Shown one piece after another: positions 135-36,397 of a DNA stretch of 57,112 nt. A program made the position numbers and the translations under genes. Every line of letters begins with the position of its first letter. The stretch's first letter is position 1. This DNA is from Neolecta irregularis DAH-3 (lineage: Eukaryota), in NCBI GenBank assembly GCA_001929475.1, contig LXFE01000149.1, forward strand, positions 1-57,112, read 5' to 3'. The notes under the pieces are model-generated. The model was not told the DNA's origin and made no database searches. It saw only the letters and a program-made list of their open reading frames with translations.

Positions 135-1575
135 TCAAATATTGGTAATATTGGCGAGCCTTTTATATTCCTGCAGCAAAATTGGGATATCGCCGATTGT
201 TAGATCGTGCGCATTTGCATCGAGGAATTTTGAACCTACCTGGTGTGGTTTTGCAAAAGAGGGTATTGCGCGAGTGGTTAGATTTGTGGCAGCGCGAACG
301 ACGTTTAAGCCTGGTAGATTTGCGAGGGAACTGGAGCTACGGTTAGAGGTGACAAACAAGGGTGTACAATGATCTTTGCCCATTGTGTTTTTCTTTTGCG
401 AATAGTTGTTTTACCTCTTGGAGGGTTTTGGGGGAGGAGCTTATGTGGTCGCGGAGAAAGTTGTAGGAAGAGTCTAGAGCGGTGGAGGCGATGGAGACAA
501 CGGAGGGAGCAGGCTGTTGTGCTGAGAGGGGGGAGGGAAAGGTCTGCGAGGACGGGGAGGGAAAGGACTGTGGGTCGAGGTTGTGCAAGGACTTTGGATC
601 GAGTGTTTCAATAAAAGTAGCAGCAGCTTCAAAGTTTGTGAGGCAGTAGGACGATTCACCGGTGAGGGGAGGGTGAAAGCGCTGGACGAAGCAGATGTGG
701 GAAACGAGGTTTGAGGGTCTTGATTTTACAAGAGTGTAGATTAAGCAAGGGAGGATGTGGTCTGCGGCGGAGCAGTCATTGCCAACACGGGCGAGGGTGT
801 CGAGGACGTGCGAGTGGATGGCCTTGAGGGCGAGCAGCTTGTCGAGAGGGCTGGTGGAGGCGTACAAGGCGGGGAGTTCTGCGGGTTAGAGCGCGACTAT
901 AGGGCGGTTGCCTTTGAGAGTGTTGGAGATGGTGGCGAGGAGGAGGTTGTGCGGGAGGGCGACGGAGAGGGCCTGCAGGGAGAGGCGGGAGTGGTTGAGG
1001 CGCGCGGTGTTTGCGGCGAGGAGGAGGTCTCTCGCGCGGTCGTGCGGGGGGCAGAAGAGGAAGGCGTACGCGTGGGCGCAGACGGCTGCGTGCACCTTGA
1101 GCGACCACGCGTGTTTGCGGGCGGCGGCGCGGAGCCGGGCAGCCTTGCGGTCTTGGATCTGCCCGTAGGGGAGCATTTCGGCGGGCAGGGCCGTGGCGGG
1201 CGGCGGCGGGCGGGAGGAGTCGCGGCGGAGGGTCAGGGCAGCGAGGCAGCGGGTGAAGAGCAGCGGGTGCGAGTCTGCGGGAGCAGCGTGCAGCGAGAGG
1301 ATAAAAGAGTCGATGTCTGCGAGGATGTCTGGGTCATGGTCAGGGTCAGGCAAGCAGTCTGGGGCCTCTTGGCTGTTCGCTAGAGGGTCTGAATCGTCTG
1401 GACAACTGGCTAGAGGGTCTGAATCGTCTGGACAACTGGCTAGAGGATCTGATTCCTCTGGACAATTCGCTAGAGGGTCTGAATCCTCTGGACAATTCGC
1501 TAGAGGGTCTGATTCCTCTGGACACTCCCCCGGAGGGGTGTCTGAATTGGAGAGCGGGTCACCAAGGGGCGGCAT
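135..1575 (-). CDS. VPS9: VPS9-domain Rab5 guanine nucleotide exchange factor (3 exons)
   Basis: VPS9 motifs SPLDKL, ADHILPCLIYTLVKSRPSNLVSHICFVQRF, GESSYCLTNFEAAATFIE; C-terminal DLTIGDIPILLQEYKRLA; introns at 879-911 (GC-AG) and ~338-368. Confidence 0.8.
1379..1528 (-). repeat. Coding 30-nt tandem repeat x5 (CP[ED][ED]SDPLA[NS]) in the Vps9 N-terminus
   Basis: Unit gctagagggtctgaatcgtctggacaactg repeated with few substitutions. Confidence 0.9.
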
Positions 1576-3727: not shown

Positions 3728-5344
3728 CTATTCTGCCTTGTTATTTCGGTTTGCAACTTTTACCGGATCCACCCATGAATTTCCACACAGCACATTCAGG
3801 CTTTTCCTTGTAAGCGAGTCAGAAAAGGCTGATGGCGACGACTGGAAGAGCGCCATTATAATCCCGAGCGAAGCCGCAAATAAATACACATCCACATGCT
3901 TCAAATTTATCTTCTTGTGCCTCTTTTCAACAATCTTCCATGACGATGCAAGAGACAGCCGTACTAAAGAGTCGACTCGTGATTTTCCGTGCTCTCGATC
4001 TAAAAACGCAAACAGTCCGCCAATGAACCCGGCTAAATGGAATCTCCAATTAGCAACAAACGCAATCAAACATACCTCCAACGAGGAAGAAAGTTATCAG
4101 GCAGAATCCGCTGAAACGCGCAAACAGAAGCCCAACATGTTCCAAAACCAAATGTTACAAACGCAGAGACCCCGGCAATTTTTTGCGCAGTCAGCATTAT
4201 GAAAGATAAAGGACTAAATTATTAGGTCCCTGAAACAAATGGAGTTTTACTCTTTCTTCACTCTTTCATAGCGTAACAGCCCTAAACAGGTGTAGAATAC
4301 AAACATAAACTTTGAAACAGGGACTAGTTGCCTCGCGCAAAATTCGAGTAAAGTTTTCGTGCACGATGGGTTGTCGGGGTGTAGAGAAGCACAAGAGAGA
4401 TATGTAATACTAGGGTGGGCCAAATTTAATATCGGAGAGATTTCCTCAAAAACCAGAGGTACAGTAGACGCCCCGGGCCGCAATACAGGAGACTTGAACT
4501 TTGGATAATTCTTTCTTGATATTTCGGCAATGTTTTTGATTATGGTATCGCCATCTGGCCATGCAAGATGTGCCGGATAATCAGCTGGTCGCTTCTTCAC
4601 ATAAGAGTTCGAAAACCCGAATATGAAACTCTTGAAGCTCTACAATTAGAATGGTGGATGGCGAAGATTATACATTAGGGAAACAGTCTCCGTCAAAAAA
4701 CATCGCATGAAGCAATTGGCTCGAAGCAAAAGGAGCCATCATCCACGAGCCAAACCACCAGGGCAGATTAGGTAAATAACCCTCGGCACCCATGAACTTG
4801 TAGAAAGATTCAACAGCTTTGGTGAAGAGGTATATCGCAATACTGACTCGTCGGTTACCAGGCGGGTGGATAGCAAGCGCTGTCCCAGAAAGGACTCCAG
4901 CGACAATAGGAGGAAAGTACTCGGTCGAGCAAAGAGACTGAAAGTATCTCAAGGATTTACAAGGTGAAGGGCGTCCTCGTCTCTGAACCAGTTTCTGCCG
5001 AAAGCGAATAAGAAACGCGAGTAGGATAGGGTGGGAAAGAAACACTCCGGCAAAACTCAGGCCACTCCGGATGGCATTCTTTTGCGCTTTACGCAATAAT
5101 TCCTTAATTCTTATGTTTTAGAATGAACTTTGAGAAAATTTTACCCTTGTTTACCAAGTGAAGCAGGAATAGCAACATCGATCGCCAAAGTTAACGCATA
5201 AGCAGCGGTAAAAGAGCGGCACGCCGAGCGAAACTTTGCTGCCGAAGGAGAATCGGAATCATGTGAATGTTTTGATAGACCACTTTTACAAATGGAGGCA
5301 TACTCCTTGGGAGAGAGAAGAAAAGTTACAAGACTGCGGGTCAT
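3728..5344 (-). CDS. TMEM135/PMP24-like multi-pass membrane protein (5 exons)
   Basis: Hydrophobic helices; RRVSIAIYLFTKA, PFASSQLLHAMFFDGDCFP, CASLHP..PSC resemble the TMEM135 family; four short GT-AG introns restore frame. Confidence 0.65.
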
Positions 5345-7529: not shown

Positions 7530-7855
7530 CTTGGTAAATATTTAGTCCTTTCAATAGATCGTCAAATGACATTCATTCCCATCTTGCAGTTTGATACCAT
7601 CTTCTAGCTTCACCGCCCAAAAAAAAGAGCTGTGATTCCATTCTTCAGAAAAAGTAATCTTCCATTGTCTTTCTCCAAGTTCTATGCCATAGCATCTTTT
7701 TCACCCACATATTTTTCAGGCTTTTCAATCTTGAATGACATAACTGACTTGGATATTGGATCAACTTCTTGTTTCTTTTCTTCCTTTTTTGGGCCAGGGG
7801 ATCTAGATTTTGGTAACGGGGATTCTTCTTTCACAGATCTTATTCTAGGAGGCAT
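7530..7855 (-). pseudogene. Degenerate Ty3/gypsy-type retrotransposon gag fragment
   Basis: Translation across a frameshift and stops gives FKIEKPEKYVGEKDA / RTWRKTMEDYF* / LFFLGGEARRWYQT..* / SFDDLLKGL, matching the retrotransposon Gag capsid pattern. Confidence 0.6.
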
Positions 7856-7973
7856 AAACTGGCTTATCTCTGAAAAAAATGCAAGCCTGATTCTTAGAGA
7901 AACATCTCCTGGTCACCTATTTTCAGGTTTACTGCGAGAAAACTTTGTTTCATTTCGCAGCACCAGGTTGTTG

Positions 7974-9344
7974 TTAATGCAATCGTAAACTAAAGCCAGC
8001 TCCTCCAATCTCACCTTCACCAAAGAGACTTCCCCGATCCACAATGGGAGCACTCGGACTTTCATGCTTTCTCCTTTCCCCAGAAGATTTGGAAGGAAAA
8101 CTTGGCATCAATTCTGTTGCTTGCGGTCGTGGTTCTTCAGTGAAATAAGGATGCTGCATCGCCACGCGAGCTGTGATGCGATTCGAAGGGTTCAAGGAAA
8201 GTAGATCTGAAAGCAGGTTTACCCCTTGTCGAGTCAATAAAGGAAACCGAGCTCGCAAAATTGAGCCTCGTCTGTAAATTAATTGATATTCGCATCGAGG
8301 AAATGCTACGCGGCGAGATGCTTCGGAAAGTTTATTGCCTTTGCATTAGGAAGATCAGAAAACCCTGGCCACTCCTCATCAGATGGAACTCCTAGAAGCT
8401 CAAAGATCCGGCGTTAGGCCAATTGATAACGATCCAAACCTTTGAAATTTGATCCAATTCGCTTTTGCCCTGCAACAGAGGTTTACCTGTTAGCAACTCG
8501 GCAAAAATACAACCAATTGACCACATATCAATTGCAGTATCGTATTTTATCGCACCGAGAAGTAGCTCCGGAGCTCTGGAATATCAACAAAATAGATATG
8601 AGTTTACTTACCGATACCATAAAGTAACAACGAGCTGGGTTAAAGGCGGCAGCGGGTCGCCATACAACCGAGCAAGTCCAAAGTCTGCTATTTTTATCAT
8701 TCCTCGATTGTTCATGAGTAAATTTGAAGTTTTCAAGTCTCGATGAATAATCCAGTAATCATGAAGAAGAGCCGTAGCCGATAGCAATTGGAGCATCAGT
8801 GTTTTGACTTCCGATTGAAGGAATGGTTCCTTCATATCTTCCATGAGGGTTTTGAGATCATGCTCGATATAATCCATGACTATAAACACGCTCAATATTA
8901 CCTTCTTTTGTTAAAAAAAAGTGGGTAATACTGCGAAAGGCTTTCTCCCATGACGACTTCCCGTATATTTACGATATTCGGATGCCGAGCGACCATTAAT
9001 GTTTCTATCTCTCGTAGACTCGTAACTGGAAACCCATTCTTTTCATTGTCCAATTTGAGTTTCTTTAGAGCTACTATTTCGCCAGTTTCCATATCCCTAG
9101 CACGATAAACGATCCCATAGGAACCTTCCTCGATGTGGTTGAGCTTTTCGTATGTGTCTACGAGACGACAGGATTCCAGAGGTGCCCCGAAGAATTGAAT
9201 GGAACGATTTGATGGGATTGATGGTTGCTGTTCCTCGACAGCGGCCTTTGAGACTGAACTCTTGCGTTTCCTAGACTTTTTTGAAACTCGGGAAGAAGCT
9301 ACAGATGGTCCCTCAAGATTGTTATCATCCCATCTCGAAGTCAT
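7974..9344 (-). CDS. CDK11: CDK11/PITSLRE-like cyclin-dependent kinase (Ppk23/NpkA type)
   Basis: [50 protein letters not shown]; 4 introns, one apparently GT..GG at 8408-8439. Confidence 0.9.
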
Positions 9345-9412
9345 CAGGCCCGGCTTTACAACATAGGTTGAGGTCGAGTCCCGCAACGTTCCCTTCGCTT
9401 TTCCCACAATCA

Positions 9413-10829
9413 ATGTTTTTGAATTGTACATCACGAAGGCTGATTACGGGGTTCAAATGCACATGGAGACAGTATACCAGCAAGGGTAGACTACCGCTGG
9501 AGGATATGATAATCGAAGCGATCAAGACAACTGGTCCACTCTCACTTCCTTCTTATATGAGGCTATGCCTTACAAATCCAGACCATGGTTATTATGCAGG
9601 AGGGAAAGATCCTCTAGGCACTTCAGGTGATTTTATTACATCACCAGAGATATCACAAATGTTTGGTGAACTGATTGGAATCTGGTTCGTCACTCAGTGG
9701 ATGGCGCAAAAAAAGCCGTCGCATTATAATCTAATTGAACTTGGTCCTGGAAGGGGAACACTACTAGACGACGCTTTACGTGTACTTATCTCAGCAATAT
9801 TGCTGCTAAACTGTCCAAGGCAATACAAGCATTTCCCGCCTGTGCGCAAGCTTTGAAGCGTATCCATCTGATAGAATCAAGTTCTACTCTTCGTGAGTTG
9901 CAAGCAAGAAAGCTCTGTAAAGTAGGCTCGCTGCGTCTTGGCGATGACAACTTATGGAGAGGCTCAGGAAATCTCGGGTGTCCTGTGACATGGCACGAAG
10001 ACTTGAAGACACTCAAAAGGGGTAGACGAAAGGCCGACTGGACAAAAGCTAATAGATAGAAGAGAGTGATGTTCCATTTGTGATAGCCCACGAATTTTTC
10101 GACGCTCTACCAATCCACAAGTTTGAGGTATTAACTTTTGATCTTTGATCTAACCGGCAGCGGACTTGTGAAGGCTGGAGAGAGCTTTTAGTCGATTCTT
10201 GCTCAAAGACTTTGCATTCGATACCTGCAAGCCCTTCAACGTCTACTGGGATCTCAGCAAGTGCTTTCCAACTAGTTCGTGCCAAAGGACCTACTCCAAC
10301 GAGTATAGCTATTACAAATTCATCGCCCCGCTACCAATCATTGCCAATAGGTTCGCGATTCGAATGCTCGCCTGATACTTTTGCTATAACGCGAGATCTT
10401 TCTCAGAGAATCAAGGCTGGTGGAGCAGTTCTTATCGTTGATTATGGACCTGAAAAGACTATTCCAATTGATACCCTACGTGGGATTCGGAAGCACAAGA
10501 TTGTATCTCCCTTTGAAACGCCTGGAACAACGGATCTCTCTGCAGATGTTGATTTTCAAGGTATCAAAGAGGTGGCTTTAGATGAAAAATGTGATGTCTA
10601 TGGACCTATAGAACAGGGAGTATGGCTTCAGACTCTAGGTATAGGTGCACGGGCAGAACAATTGAAGGCGTCTCAAAGCACTGTACAAGGCTGTCATCGT
10701 ATAGAAATCGGTCAAAAGAGACTAGTTGAAAGTAACCATGGATCCATGGGAAAAGCATACAAATTCATGTCAATTCTTCGAAAAGATAGTCCGATACCGG
10801 TAGGCTTTGGGGGTGATATACAAGATTGA
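9413..10829 (+). CDS. NDUFAF7: Mitochondrial protein arginine methyltransferase NDUFAF7/MidA (DUF185)
   Basis: GDFITSPEISQMFGELIGIW, ELGPGRGTL, AHEFFDALP, VDYG, DLSADVDF; 3 introns. Confidence 0.92.
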
Positions 10830-20144: not shown

Positions 20145-21114
20145 ATGTTGCTTACGCGCGCCTTTACCGGCCGCCGCTGCTTCTCACCGCCCAGTTTTCG
20201 CTTACTTACGGGCGCATACCTATGCCGCTCTCAGTCTTCTTTACCTGAGAAACCCGACCTCACCCATTTTGGCTTCCGTGAAGTCCCCGCCCCCCTCAAG
20301 CAGTCGTTGGGTATTTCACCCTGCTGATCTCAGTCTAATTTCCCTGCATATAGTCGCCGAGGTTTTCTCTTCTGTTGCTTCTTCCTATGATCTCATGAAC
20401 GATGCCATGTCTGCAGGGATCCACCGTTTGTGGAAAGACCGATTCGTCCAGAAACTTGATCCCGGCCGTGGTCGCATGAATATTCTCGATGTTGCTGGAG
20501 GGACGGGCGATATTGCCTTTCGGATGCTTGACCACGCTGCAAAAGTACACAACGATCACGATACGCTGGTTACTTGCGTAGATATTAACCCAGATATGCT
20601 CGCAGAAGGCAAGAAAAGATTATTGTCTACCTGCTACGCCAACAGTACTGCCATAGATTGGCTCTCTTCTGACCCTCTAGCTCCTAGGGTCTCTTTCAAA
20701 GTTCAGAATGCCGAGCTTCTCGACGAGATACCTTCAAATTCTGTCGACCTATATACCATCGCATTTGGGATCCGCAATTGCACCCACATCCCGCTTGTTC
20801 TACAACAAGCCCATCGCGTCCTCAAACCAGGCGGTATATTTGCATGTCTGGAATTCGGCAAAGTCTCGCCTCCCCCTCTGGCTTCACTCTATCGCCAATA
20901 TTCCTTCTCAGTGATCCCTTTAATCGGTCAACTGATCGCCGGTGATCGTGATTCATACCAATATCTGGTAGAGAGCATTGAAAAGTTCCCAAAACAGGAA
21001 GATTTCGCCAAACTGATTGAGGATGCTGGGTTTGAAATTTCTGGAAATGGATGGGAAGATTTGACCTTTGGCGTCGCGGCAATCCATACAGGCCTGAAGA
21101 AAAAATATAAATAA
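20145..21114 (+). CDS. COQ5: Ubiquinone biosynthesis C-methyltransferase Coq5
   Basis: THFGF, VFSSVASSYDLMNDAMSAGIHRLWKD, LDVAGGTGDIAF, YTIAFGIRN, YQYLVESIEKFP; 2 introns. Confidence 0.95.
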
Positions 21115-23557: not shown

Positions 23558-25591
23558 TCAGTATAATTGTGGTCCGGCCGCGAGAATTTCTGCCGATGCT
23601 TGATCCTTATACTTCACAAAATTCTTCGTGAAGAGGGTGGCAAGTTTTCGAGCTTCATTGTTCAATTCGGTTTCACTACTCCATGACCGATACGGGTTCA
23701 GAATCTCTTCCGGAACACCGACACACGTTTTAGGGACGCTCAAATTGAAGATCTTGAAAGTCTCATACTCAACTTCTGCAAGTGAACCCGAATGAATGGC
23801 ATTCAGAATTGCACGCGTGTATTTGAGAGGACATCGCTGACCACCCAAGACTTGGCTGTGACCGATCCAGCCGGTGTTAACTAGCCAGGCATTGGCTTTG
23901 TGCGCGGTGATTTTCTAAGACTCAGTAACACTTCAGAATTATTTGTTACCTTTGCGAGCATATTTGCGTAACGGATAGGATGCAGGACCAGGAATGGTTG
24001 TCCAAAACAAGCCGAAAATGTTGCTTCAGGTTCGGTCACACCATCTACAGGTTAGAGATATACATGCCTTCTAGGGGCAACCTTCAGTTCCAGCCATTTT
24101 GGACGTGTATCCGCTGATAAAGTGATACATGACCTTGTTGTCAGAACGAGATTTGAATATGCAATACCTGCTCGTTGTTGAGTTTGGAGACAGGCGGTAA
24201 AACACCACTGGCGTCGCAAGTGAGAAGGATAATATTCCGAGGATGACCACTGGAGATGCAAGGGATTTTAGCATTAGGAATAAATCTATCTGTTAGGTTG
24301 CAATGAAAAGCACGCATACTCAATTGGATAAGCGCATCGAGTATTTTCTGTAAGTGTCTTGTCCTCGTAATCAACAACTCGATCGACTGGATTGAACACA
24401 ACATTTTCCAATACAGAGCCAAACCGAATAGCATTAAAAATATCAGGTTCCTAGAGTCAAAAATGATGTTTTTCTATTGAGATATCACCTTCTCGGCAGA
24501 GAGACCAATGCATTTCGCGTAACATCCACCCTCGACATTGAAGACGCCTGTGTCACTCCAACAATGCTCGTCGTCTCCGATCAAGGCTCGATGGGGATCT
24601 GCCGACAGAGTAGTCTTTCCGGTGCCGGAAAGGCCAAAGAATAACGTGACGTCACCGTCGACTCCTTCATTCGCAGAAGAATGGAGAGTAAGGATGTTAT
24701 GTTTGACAGGGAAGAGGTAGAGAACAACAGAAAAGATACCCTTCTTCATTTCGCCTATAAGATTAATACAGTTCCAGGGTGGGAAGGGCGAACCAGCATA
24801 TTCAGTGCCAAGGATAACCATTTCATGTTCTTTAAAGTTGATCGCGACAGAAGTGGTCGATGTCATGCCAGTAGTGAATCGATTAGCAGGGACTAAGATC
24901 AGAGATGCAGCAACTCCAAGAATTTTTACATGCACCGGCGTTGTAGATTGTAAAGTCTGGCTTGCCCCAGTGCTCCAGTTCCTCGGGCGTTGGTCGTATA
25001 AGCATATTTCGCATGAAGAGACAATGATAGGCACGGGCACAAACGACGCGGACTTTGATATGGTACCTTGGATCCCACCCTGCATATCCATCGAACACGT
25101 AAATTCGGGATCGGGTGTTTAGGTAATCAATAGCACGTTCACGATTAATGAGCCAAACATTCGGAGACATCTTTTGATTGACCACGCCCCACTACAGGTT
25201 TAATCTATGAGGGAAGATCTCGACCGTACCCAAATGTCTTTTGAAGATGTTTCTTCGTCGACTATCCGCTTGTCTTATGGAATGAGAAGACTTTATAGCA
25301 TACTCGCATACCTTTGGGAGAACGGCCAGTTTTTGCTCCTGAACTGGTATTCAGAGCACCCGTATTGGTAATTGCGCTTCCTTTTTCATAAACAAGAGCA
25401 TCCTCGTAGAGCTGAGCGACAGAAGGGTTGTATTGGATGTGCACGATGTCATAATTAATGTGTGCAGTTTCATAGAGTTCTTCTTCGATTTCTGTATGTT
25501 CATGCTCGGTAACAGCAGGAGTAATTCCGTGGGGATGTAGAGAAGTTCGATTGACCGAGCTTTTAGCTTGTTCAGCGGGAGACATTTTCAT
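23558..25591 (-). CDS. PCK1: Phosphoenolpyruvate carboxykinase (ATP)
   Basis: [75 protein letters not shown]; 9 introns. Confidence 0.97.
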
Positions 25592-36272: not shown

Positions 36273-36352
36273 GGTTTGAATATAGTAGATGGGAAGGAGC
36301 AGCTGGCTTTTTATGGAAAAATAGTATCGATGCGGTAATTTGCCACAGTCAG

Positions 36353-36397
36353 TGACGTCATCACAACACTTACGCGCAGTTGTTAGGGTTAGGGTTA
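36353..36397. promoter_or_regulatory. CRE palindrome (TGACGTCA) plus telomere-like TTAGGGTTAGGGTTA box upstream of the Slm1-like gene
   Basis: TGACGTCA at 36353-36360; TTAGGG x2.5 at 36383-36397. Confidence 0.5.

Follow-up and report, generated by a model that had tools for sequence, protein, structure and literature searches.

The stretch 8439..8408 on the minus strand of the analysed window (the whole 57,112-nt stretch of Neolecta irregularis DAH-3 DNA) is very probably a genuine U2-type intron, handled by the major spliceosome, which belongs to the rare GT-GG class and is removed exactly from a CDK11/ppk23-like gene. GT-GG introns are an already known rare class; what is new here is a transcript-supported case in Neolecta, together with the correction of a gene model. 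The coordinates of the gene and of the features discussed below are given in Table 1.

Table 1. Features of the kinase gene and of its third intron (positions refer to the window; X2 is a sequencing run described in the text).
Feature	Position	Strand	Remarks
CDK11/ppk23-like kinase gene	7974..9431	-	CDS span according to the deposited model: start 9431, stop ends 7974
Intron 1	8891..8931	-	41 nt, GTATTA…GAG, canonical; skipped by X2
Intron 2	8576..8611	-	36 nt, GTAAGT…CAG, canonical; skipped by X2
Exon 3 (…APELLLG…)	8440..8575	-	X2 piece 8440-8575; translation
Intron 3	8408..8439	-	32 nt, GT..GG ends; skipped exactly by the presumably spliced X2 contig
5' splice site GTTTGG of intron 3, after exon AAG	8434..8439	-	off-consensus: T at +3 and +4
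Branch-site motif CTAAC	8413..8417	-	sole nTrAy match within intron 3; presumed branch A = 8414
Terminal GG (context CGG), 3' splice site	8408..8409	-	X1 re-assembly without difference at GG
Downstream AG (context TTTGAG)	8399..8400	-	15 nt past the presumed branch A; acceptor of the deposited model, unused in the transcript contig
Exon 4 (…PKHLAA)	8310..8407	-	X2 piece 8310-8407; translation
Intron 4	8272..8309	-	38 nt, GTAGCA…CAG, canonical; skipped by X2

Read directly from the minus strand, intron 3 (8439..8408) is GTTTGGATCGTTATCAATTGGCCTAACGCCGG (32 nt), preceded by ...GAT CAA ATT TCA AAG and followed by ATC TTT GAG CTT CTA GGA. No AG is present in the whole 32-nt interval, and the next one ends at 8399, in frame and 9 nt downstream. 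Unspliced read-through in frame 0 leads to a stop codon, thus the removed length must be 2 mod 3. The CTAAC motif is the best branch motif among the four introns of the gene: 6 nt (CGCCGG) separate the presumed branch A at 8414 from the intron end, i.e. 5 nt after the motif. Of the four verified donors of the gene, GTTTGG is the weakest (the others being GTATTA, GTAAGT and GTAGCA). As for the features that define a U2-type intron, the sequence starts with GT (8439..8434), carries a yTrAy motif near its 3' end (CTAAC, a predicted branch site) and is precisely missing from the contig of run X2, presumably a cDNA; at its end, CGG is found instead of a terminal AG, and the intron was therefore filed in the GT-GG non-canonical subclass and not among the canonical GT-AG introns. 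A G flanks the joint on both sides, leaving a 1-nt ambiguity in the alignment, so that a GG..CG register would yield an identical mRNA; we discarded this register, both ends of which are non-canonical. The 32-nt GT..GG intron with its CGG end and the CTAAC lying 5 nt before that end had been claimed in a preliminary description of this DNA, and both are present exactly as described there.

Two sequencing runs of one study share the locus: X1, which contains all the sampled words, and X2, which contains 0.79 of them. Neither run is listed as RNA: the entry for both is 'DNA?', itself a guess, and their organism labels differ. The genome paper of Neolecta reports that both DNA and RNA were sequenced, from wild-collected fruiting bodies (PMC5309816). 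The two runs were examined as contigs over positions 7900-9500, a form of the data in which minor isoforms, heterozygosity and rare variants are invisible.

Over this interval, the alignment of the X2 contig (2016 nt, depth 95.3) falls into five pieces, which leave out exactly 8272-8309, 8408-8439, 8576-8611 and 8891-8931. On the gene strand, three of these skips are GT..AG and one, that of 32 nt, is GT..GG (recorded as 'CC..AC' on the plus strand, with both = 1). Since X2 lacks all four introns of the gene, it is most simply a spliced transcript, and we infer that the contig is cDNA. It joins 8440 to 8407 (AAG|ATC), and this is the junction of the only X2 contig at the gene; no contig with the 41-nt skip (AAG|CTT) is found there. 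The junction is thus the one predicted by the preliminary description, with neither AAG|CTT nor intron retention, and it bears out the proposed tolerance of a non-AG end, with the reservation on the genotype of X2 given below.

The X1 contig, a Logan re-assembly of the genomic run, is colinear with the window, with 0 differences over 7900-9500 at a depth of 441.5, and reproduces CGG. The suspicion of an A>G base error in place of CAG therefore found no support in X1, which may nevertheless be the assembly's own read set and hence not independent: if X1 is the source of the reads, its agreement rules out a slip of the assembler and not a library-wide error. Compared with the window, the X2 contig has differences at 7939, 7948 and 7951, in the 3' UTR, and at one unlisted position in 8440-8575. 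This corresponds to a divergence of ~0.2-0.3% per site (3 listed plus 1 unlisted differences over about 1450 aligned nt) and indicates that the transcript stems from a slightly different genotype within the same species, whose intron 3 could end in CAG. A metagenome scan for alleles of the locus, based on the two exon flanks separated by a gap of 20-50 nt, returned 0 matches.

The X2 contig also extends ~355 nt past 7900 and ~207 nt past 9500 (approx. 7545-7900 and 9500-9707), and the extension spans a small downstream ORF, MPPRIRSVKEE… (about 7850-7685, minus strand). These extensions could be long UTRs or read-through into the neighbours.

The host protein contains a Pkinase domain (E 1.1e-62), and its best solved match is human CDK11B with 408 bits (E 3.7e-121), against 277 bits for the next CDK; its homologues carry the names ppk23 or CDK11B. 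Sequence comparison thus places the host gene in the CDK11/ppk23 subfamily, as had been proposed. The deposited protein, P0002, is named 'Cyclin-dependent kinase G-2 [Neolecta irregularis DAH-3]' and has 433 aa. It shares with X2 the donor of intron 3 and the other three introns, and it reads DQISKLLGVP, which means that the deposited model closed intron 3 at GAG. When the window is spliced as in X2, the product has 436 aa and equals P0002 with IFE added at residues 306-308, being otherwise identical. The deposited model forced an AG and is hence three residues (IFE) too short: this is the in-frame loss that the preliminary description had foreseen for the use of the next AG, 9 nt on.

At the other end of the protein, we observed that the orthologues start with M-S-x-K-x-K-S-R-W-D-D, which resembles the sequence from the second ATG at 9344 (MTSRWDD…) and not the deposited start at 9431 (MYNSKTL…). 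The first 29 residues of P0002 may be 5' UTR.

The conservation of the IFE segment was evaluated on 120 homologues, for 69 of which the preceding D.WS.GCI motif provided an anchor; the 51 without the anchor were left out. The spacer from DQ to G.P is 8 residues long in 67/69 anchored homologues, and IF occupies the two corresponding positions in 62 of the 69. The remaining spacers measure 13 residues in one homologue and 5 residues in P0002 alone, a length found in 0/68 of the other anchored sequences. In the HMMER alignment with human CDK11B, P0002 likewise has a gap of three residues at the IFE position. The segment DQISK-IFELLG, whose restoration by removal of the 32 nt had been claimed, has the 8-residue spacer of the great majority of the anchored homologues.

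An AlphaFold model of the orthologue P0032 was obtained from a 45-sequence alignment (mean pLDDT 75.3; 36.9 in a single-sequence run). It predicts a helix of 12 residues (309-320; local pLDDT 89-93) that comes after a long helix at 284-299 and contains the IFE-equivalent residues 316-318. We take this helix, the next after the kinase F helix, to be the G helix of the kinase nomenclature. According to the model, loss of IFE would take a quarter of the 12-residue helix.

These data have to be weighed against other readings of the joint. One is that the intron is canonical in the population (…CTAACGCCAG), that the A>G difference at -2 is private to the assembled individual or haplotype, or is a systematic read error, and that the transcript derives from a CAG allele. 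The X2 genotype does differ from the window at the four positions mentioned above, the sequenced DNA and RNA were taken from fruiting bodies collected in the wild (PMC5309816), X1 possibly consists of the same reads as the assembly, and contigs drop rare variants. Against this, at a divergence of ~0.2-0.3% a change at exactly this base is a priori unlikely, a splice-killing change should be selected against, and the X1 re-assembly at depth 441.5 gives CGG only. We consider this reading quite unlikely; even if it were true, a living carrier of CGG must still process the gene somehow. Still less probable is that the deposited 41-nt intron (GT…GAG, 8439..8399), which leaves a kinase without IFE, is the main product and AAG|ATC a minor isoform. 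The 41-nt intron is the only GT-AG option that this donor offers, it preserves the frame, and a GAG acceptor is also present in intron 1 of the same gene; but the only X2 contig at the gene, at depth 95.3, has AAG|ATC, the 5-residue spacer that the 41-nt intron would produce is unmatched among the 68 other anchored homologues, and a quarter of the predicted helix would be lost.

A non-spliceosomal origin of the joint, by template switching of the reverse transcriptase, assembly artefact, a DNA retrocopy or excision of the IRE1/tRNA-ligase type, appears barely plausible. In its favour are the non-canonical boundary, the 'DNA?' label of X2 and a possible 12-bp helix between the two junctions: within 8394-8446 of the minus strand, the end of the exon with the 5' splice site (UCAAAGGUUUGG) can pair with the end of the intron and the start of the next exon (CCGGAUCUUUGA), so that the GG and the downstream GAG would both be buried. 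However, template switching needs direct repeats and only 1 nt of microhomology is available; three textbook GT..AG introns are gone from the same X2 contig; intron 3 has a GT and a perfect CTAAC, and its removal exactly fits the conserved protein. Moreover, the predicted helix is no better than in shuffled sequences, the RNA fold of 8385-8460 being not significant (z = -0.79; 38/200 shuffles fold as well). Introns of the IRE1/tRNA-ligase type (HAC1/XBP1) have both cleavage sites in the loops of twin stem-loops. An IRE1-type intron was rejected here: both junctions fall within a single stem of the predicted fold, and that fold is not superior to those of shuffled sequences.

Other models of the interval were also rejected. 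A U12-type intron, a class marked by an extended and highly conserved consensus at the 5' splice site and the branch site, was discarded by eye, GTTTGGAT being unlike the minor-class donor. If the 32-nt interval is moved by 9 nt (8430..8399, GTTATC…GAG), it becomes a canonical GT..AG intron, but this version is contradicted by the X2 joint, and its VW occurs in 0/69 anchored homologues. Finally, a 48-nt removal to CTAG is out of frame and meets a stop, as worked out by hand.

For the GT-GG intron, the following mechanism can be proposed. U2 would pair with the perfect CTAAC and, after branching, the 6 nt between the branch A and the intron end would form the short tether that seems typical of the introns of this genome. 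The short tether would bring the nucleotide at that distance into the catalytic centre, where the terminal G would keep its known non-Watson-Crick contact with the first G of the intron, so that the loss of the A at -2 could be tolerated. The sole available AG, the GAG 15 nt from the branch A, would lie outside the usual range of distances and so go unused. GAG serves as the acceptor in intron 1 of the same gene, therefore GAG as such is not excluded as an acceptor in this organism. For intron 3, we infer that the distance from the branch point sets the acceptor. The more general idea, that the 3' splice site in Neolecta is picked mainly at a fixed ~6-8 nt from the branch A with only the terminal G needed, seems to us rather unlikely.

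Branch distances were expressed as the number of nucleotides after the presumed branch A, following the counting rule of PMC10711555, and the branch sites are motif guesses. On this basis, the verified canonical introns of the gene gave 8 nt (TTGAT), 7 nt (TTAAT) and, for the third, either 20 (TTAAC) or 7 (GTAAT), with 6 for the GG intron. As a comparison set we used 13 hand-picked short introns supported by ORFs, none of them transcript-verified (10 from 58 strong-donor loci plus 3 others). A strict yTrAy motif is present in 8/13, at distances of 6, 6, 7, 7, 7, 10, 16 and 19 nt; the distance is thus 6-7 nt in 5 of the 8. The two at 6 nt are 4044-4075 (CTAATTGGAG) and 20306-20333 (CTGATCTCAG). 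The branch motifs in the window are degenerate (TTGAT, TTAAT, CTAAT, CTGAC). The spacing claimed to be shared with the canonical introns here is therefore recovered, on a small and partly heuristic sample.

In intron 1 (8891-8931, minus strand), two AGs located 6 and 9 nt after TTAAC, the better motif, are left unused; use of either would give a stop codon. Two explanations are conceivable: branching at the weaker GTAAT, 7 nt before the intron end, or degradation of the products of these two AGs. Given these unused AGs, a pure distance rule works only if GTAAT is the real branch site.

An automated search for introns, combining ORF logic, a codon score and iterated weight matrices, was too noisy and was dropped, because it misplaced 2 of the 3 verified canonical introns (called as 8972-8905 and 8309-8267). 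In the heuristic scan of the 57-kb window, no second convincing non-AG intron was found, and CG, TG and GG ends were not enriched (4/21 non-AG candidates, about 4 expected). There is thus no sign yet of a systematic property.

The only GT…CTGAC…GG candidate of the scan is located at 36343-36373 (minus strand, read 36373..36343): 31 nt, GTAAGT…CTGACTGTGG, with a strong donor, a GG end and the branch A 6 nt before that end, much as in intron 3; alternatively, a 67-nt GT..AG intron can be drawn there. The candidate is flanked by the stop of a translation-GTPase-like ORF on one side and the ATG of the following gene on the other, so that it could at most be an intron of a UTR. At 24286-24319 (minus strand), a heuristic, unverified 34-nt intron ending in CCTAACAGATAG would skip an AG 3 nt past its branch A in favour of an AG at 7 nt. 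On a separate matter, positions 1-2000 of the window have 61% G+C, against about 44% elsewhere; an ORF at 343-867 (minus strand) encodes a VPS9 domain (E 6.1e-21), and five other long ORFs of this segment had no Pfam match.

Introns of this class have been reported in other organisms. The manually curated, transcript-based annotation of Ganoderma lingzhi is reported to include 38 GT-GG introns, or 0.041% (PMC11590231), and a survey of Giardia counted GT-GG as a 'semi-canonical' junction (PMC10711314). Like the Ganoderma lingzhi introns as reported, the Neolecta one starts with GT, ends with GG, is supported by a transcript and lies in an ordinary protein-coding gene. The rarity is also similar, with a GT-AG majority in Ganoderma lingzhi and 3/4 GT-AG introns in the Neolecta gene. 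Unlike the entries of the Ganoderma and Giardia lists as reported, which come without anatomy, the Neolecta intron can be described as a 32-nt sequence with a perfect CTAAC whose branch A is 6 nt from the end; it also differs from those entries in lying in the region of a conserved kinase helix and in having been mis-modelled in the public proteome. We found no published account of the splice sites of Neolecta, and the main text of its genome paper, supplements aside, contains neither 'intron' nor 'splic' (PMC5309816).

A functional parallel comes from yeast, in which Prp18 is reported to enforce YAG and a minimum distance of 10 nt from branch to 3' splice site (PMC10711555). According to the same source, S. 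cerevisiae without Prp18 uses 'BG' sites, with a non-A at -2 before the final G, as well as sites as close as 7 nt to the branch, and on substrates with a short distance from branch to 3' splice site Prp18 and Slu7 are not needed (PMC10711555). The Neolecta acceptor resembles these sites in having a non-A at -2, a G at -1 and a distance below the 10-nt yeast minimum (7 there, 6 here). In contrast to the error products of the yeast mutant, the Neolecta GG site is apparently normal and productive, in a wild organism.

A short distance between branch point and intron end has precedents as well: Giardia introns have a fused branch-point/3' splice-site motif, CT[A|G]ACACACAG (PMC10711314), and some lineages are reported to have converged on a fixed distance between branch and AG (PMC2483917). 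As in Giardia and in such fixed-distance lineages, the Neolecta introns considered here are very short, with the branch A a fixed few nt (6-8) from the end. Unlike Giardia, which keeps the AG within a near-invariant motif, the Neolecta window shows degenerate branch motifs.

The immediate consequence is the correction of a public protein model, which should have 436 aa and not 433, with the conserved IFE back in its helix. As a single case, the intron is a curiosity of a known rare class. It is at the same time a clean natural GG acceptor 6 nt from the branch A of a perfect branch motif, a configuration that the work in yeast ties to Prp18-independent, relaxed choice of the 3' splice site. If the distance-based choice outlined above were true, the relaxed fidelity seen in yeast without Prp18 would have a natural equivalent in Neolecta, and non-AG acceptors would be scattered through its genome; as gene callers impose an AG, annotations would systematically misrepresent them as small deletions or insertions in frame. 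If more such introns exist genome-wide, Neolecta would be a natural system for studying how far branch distance replaces the AG.
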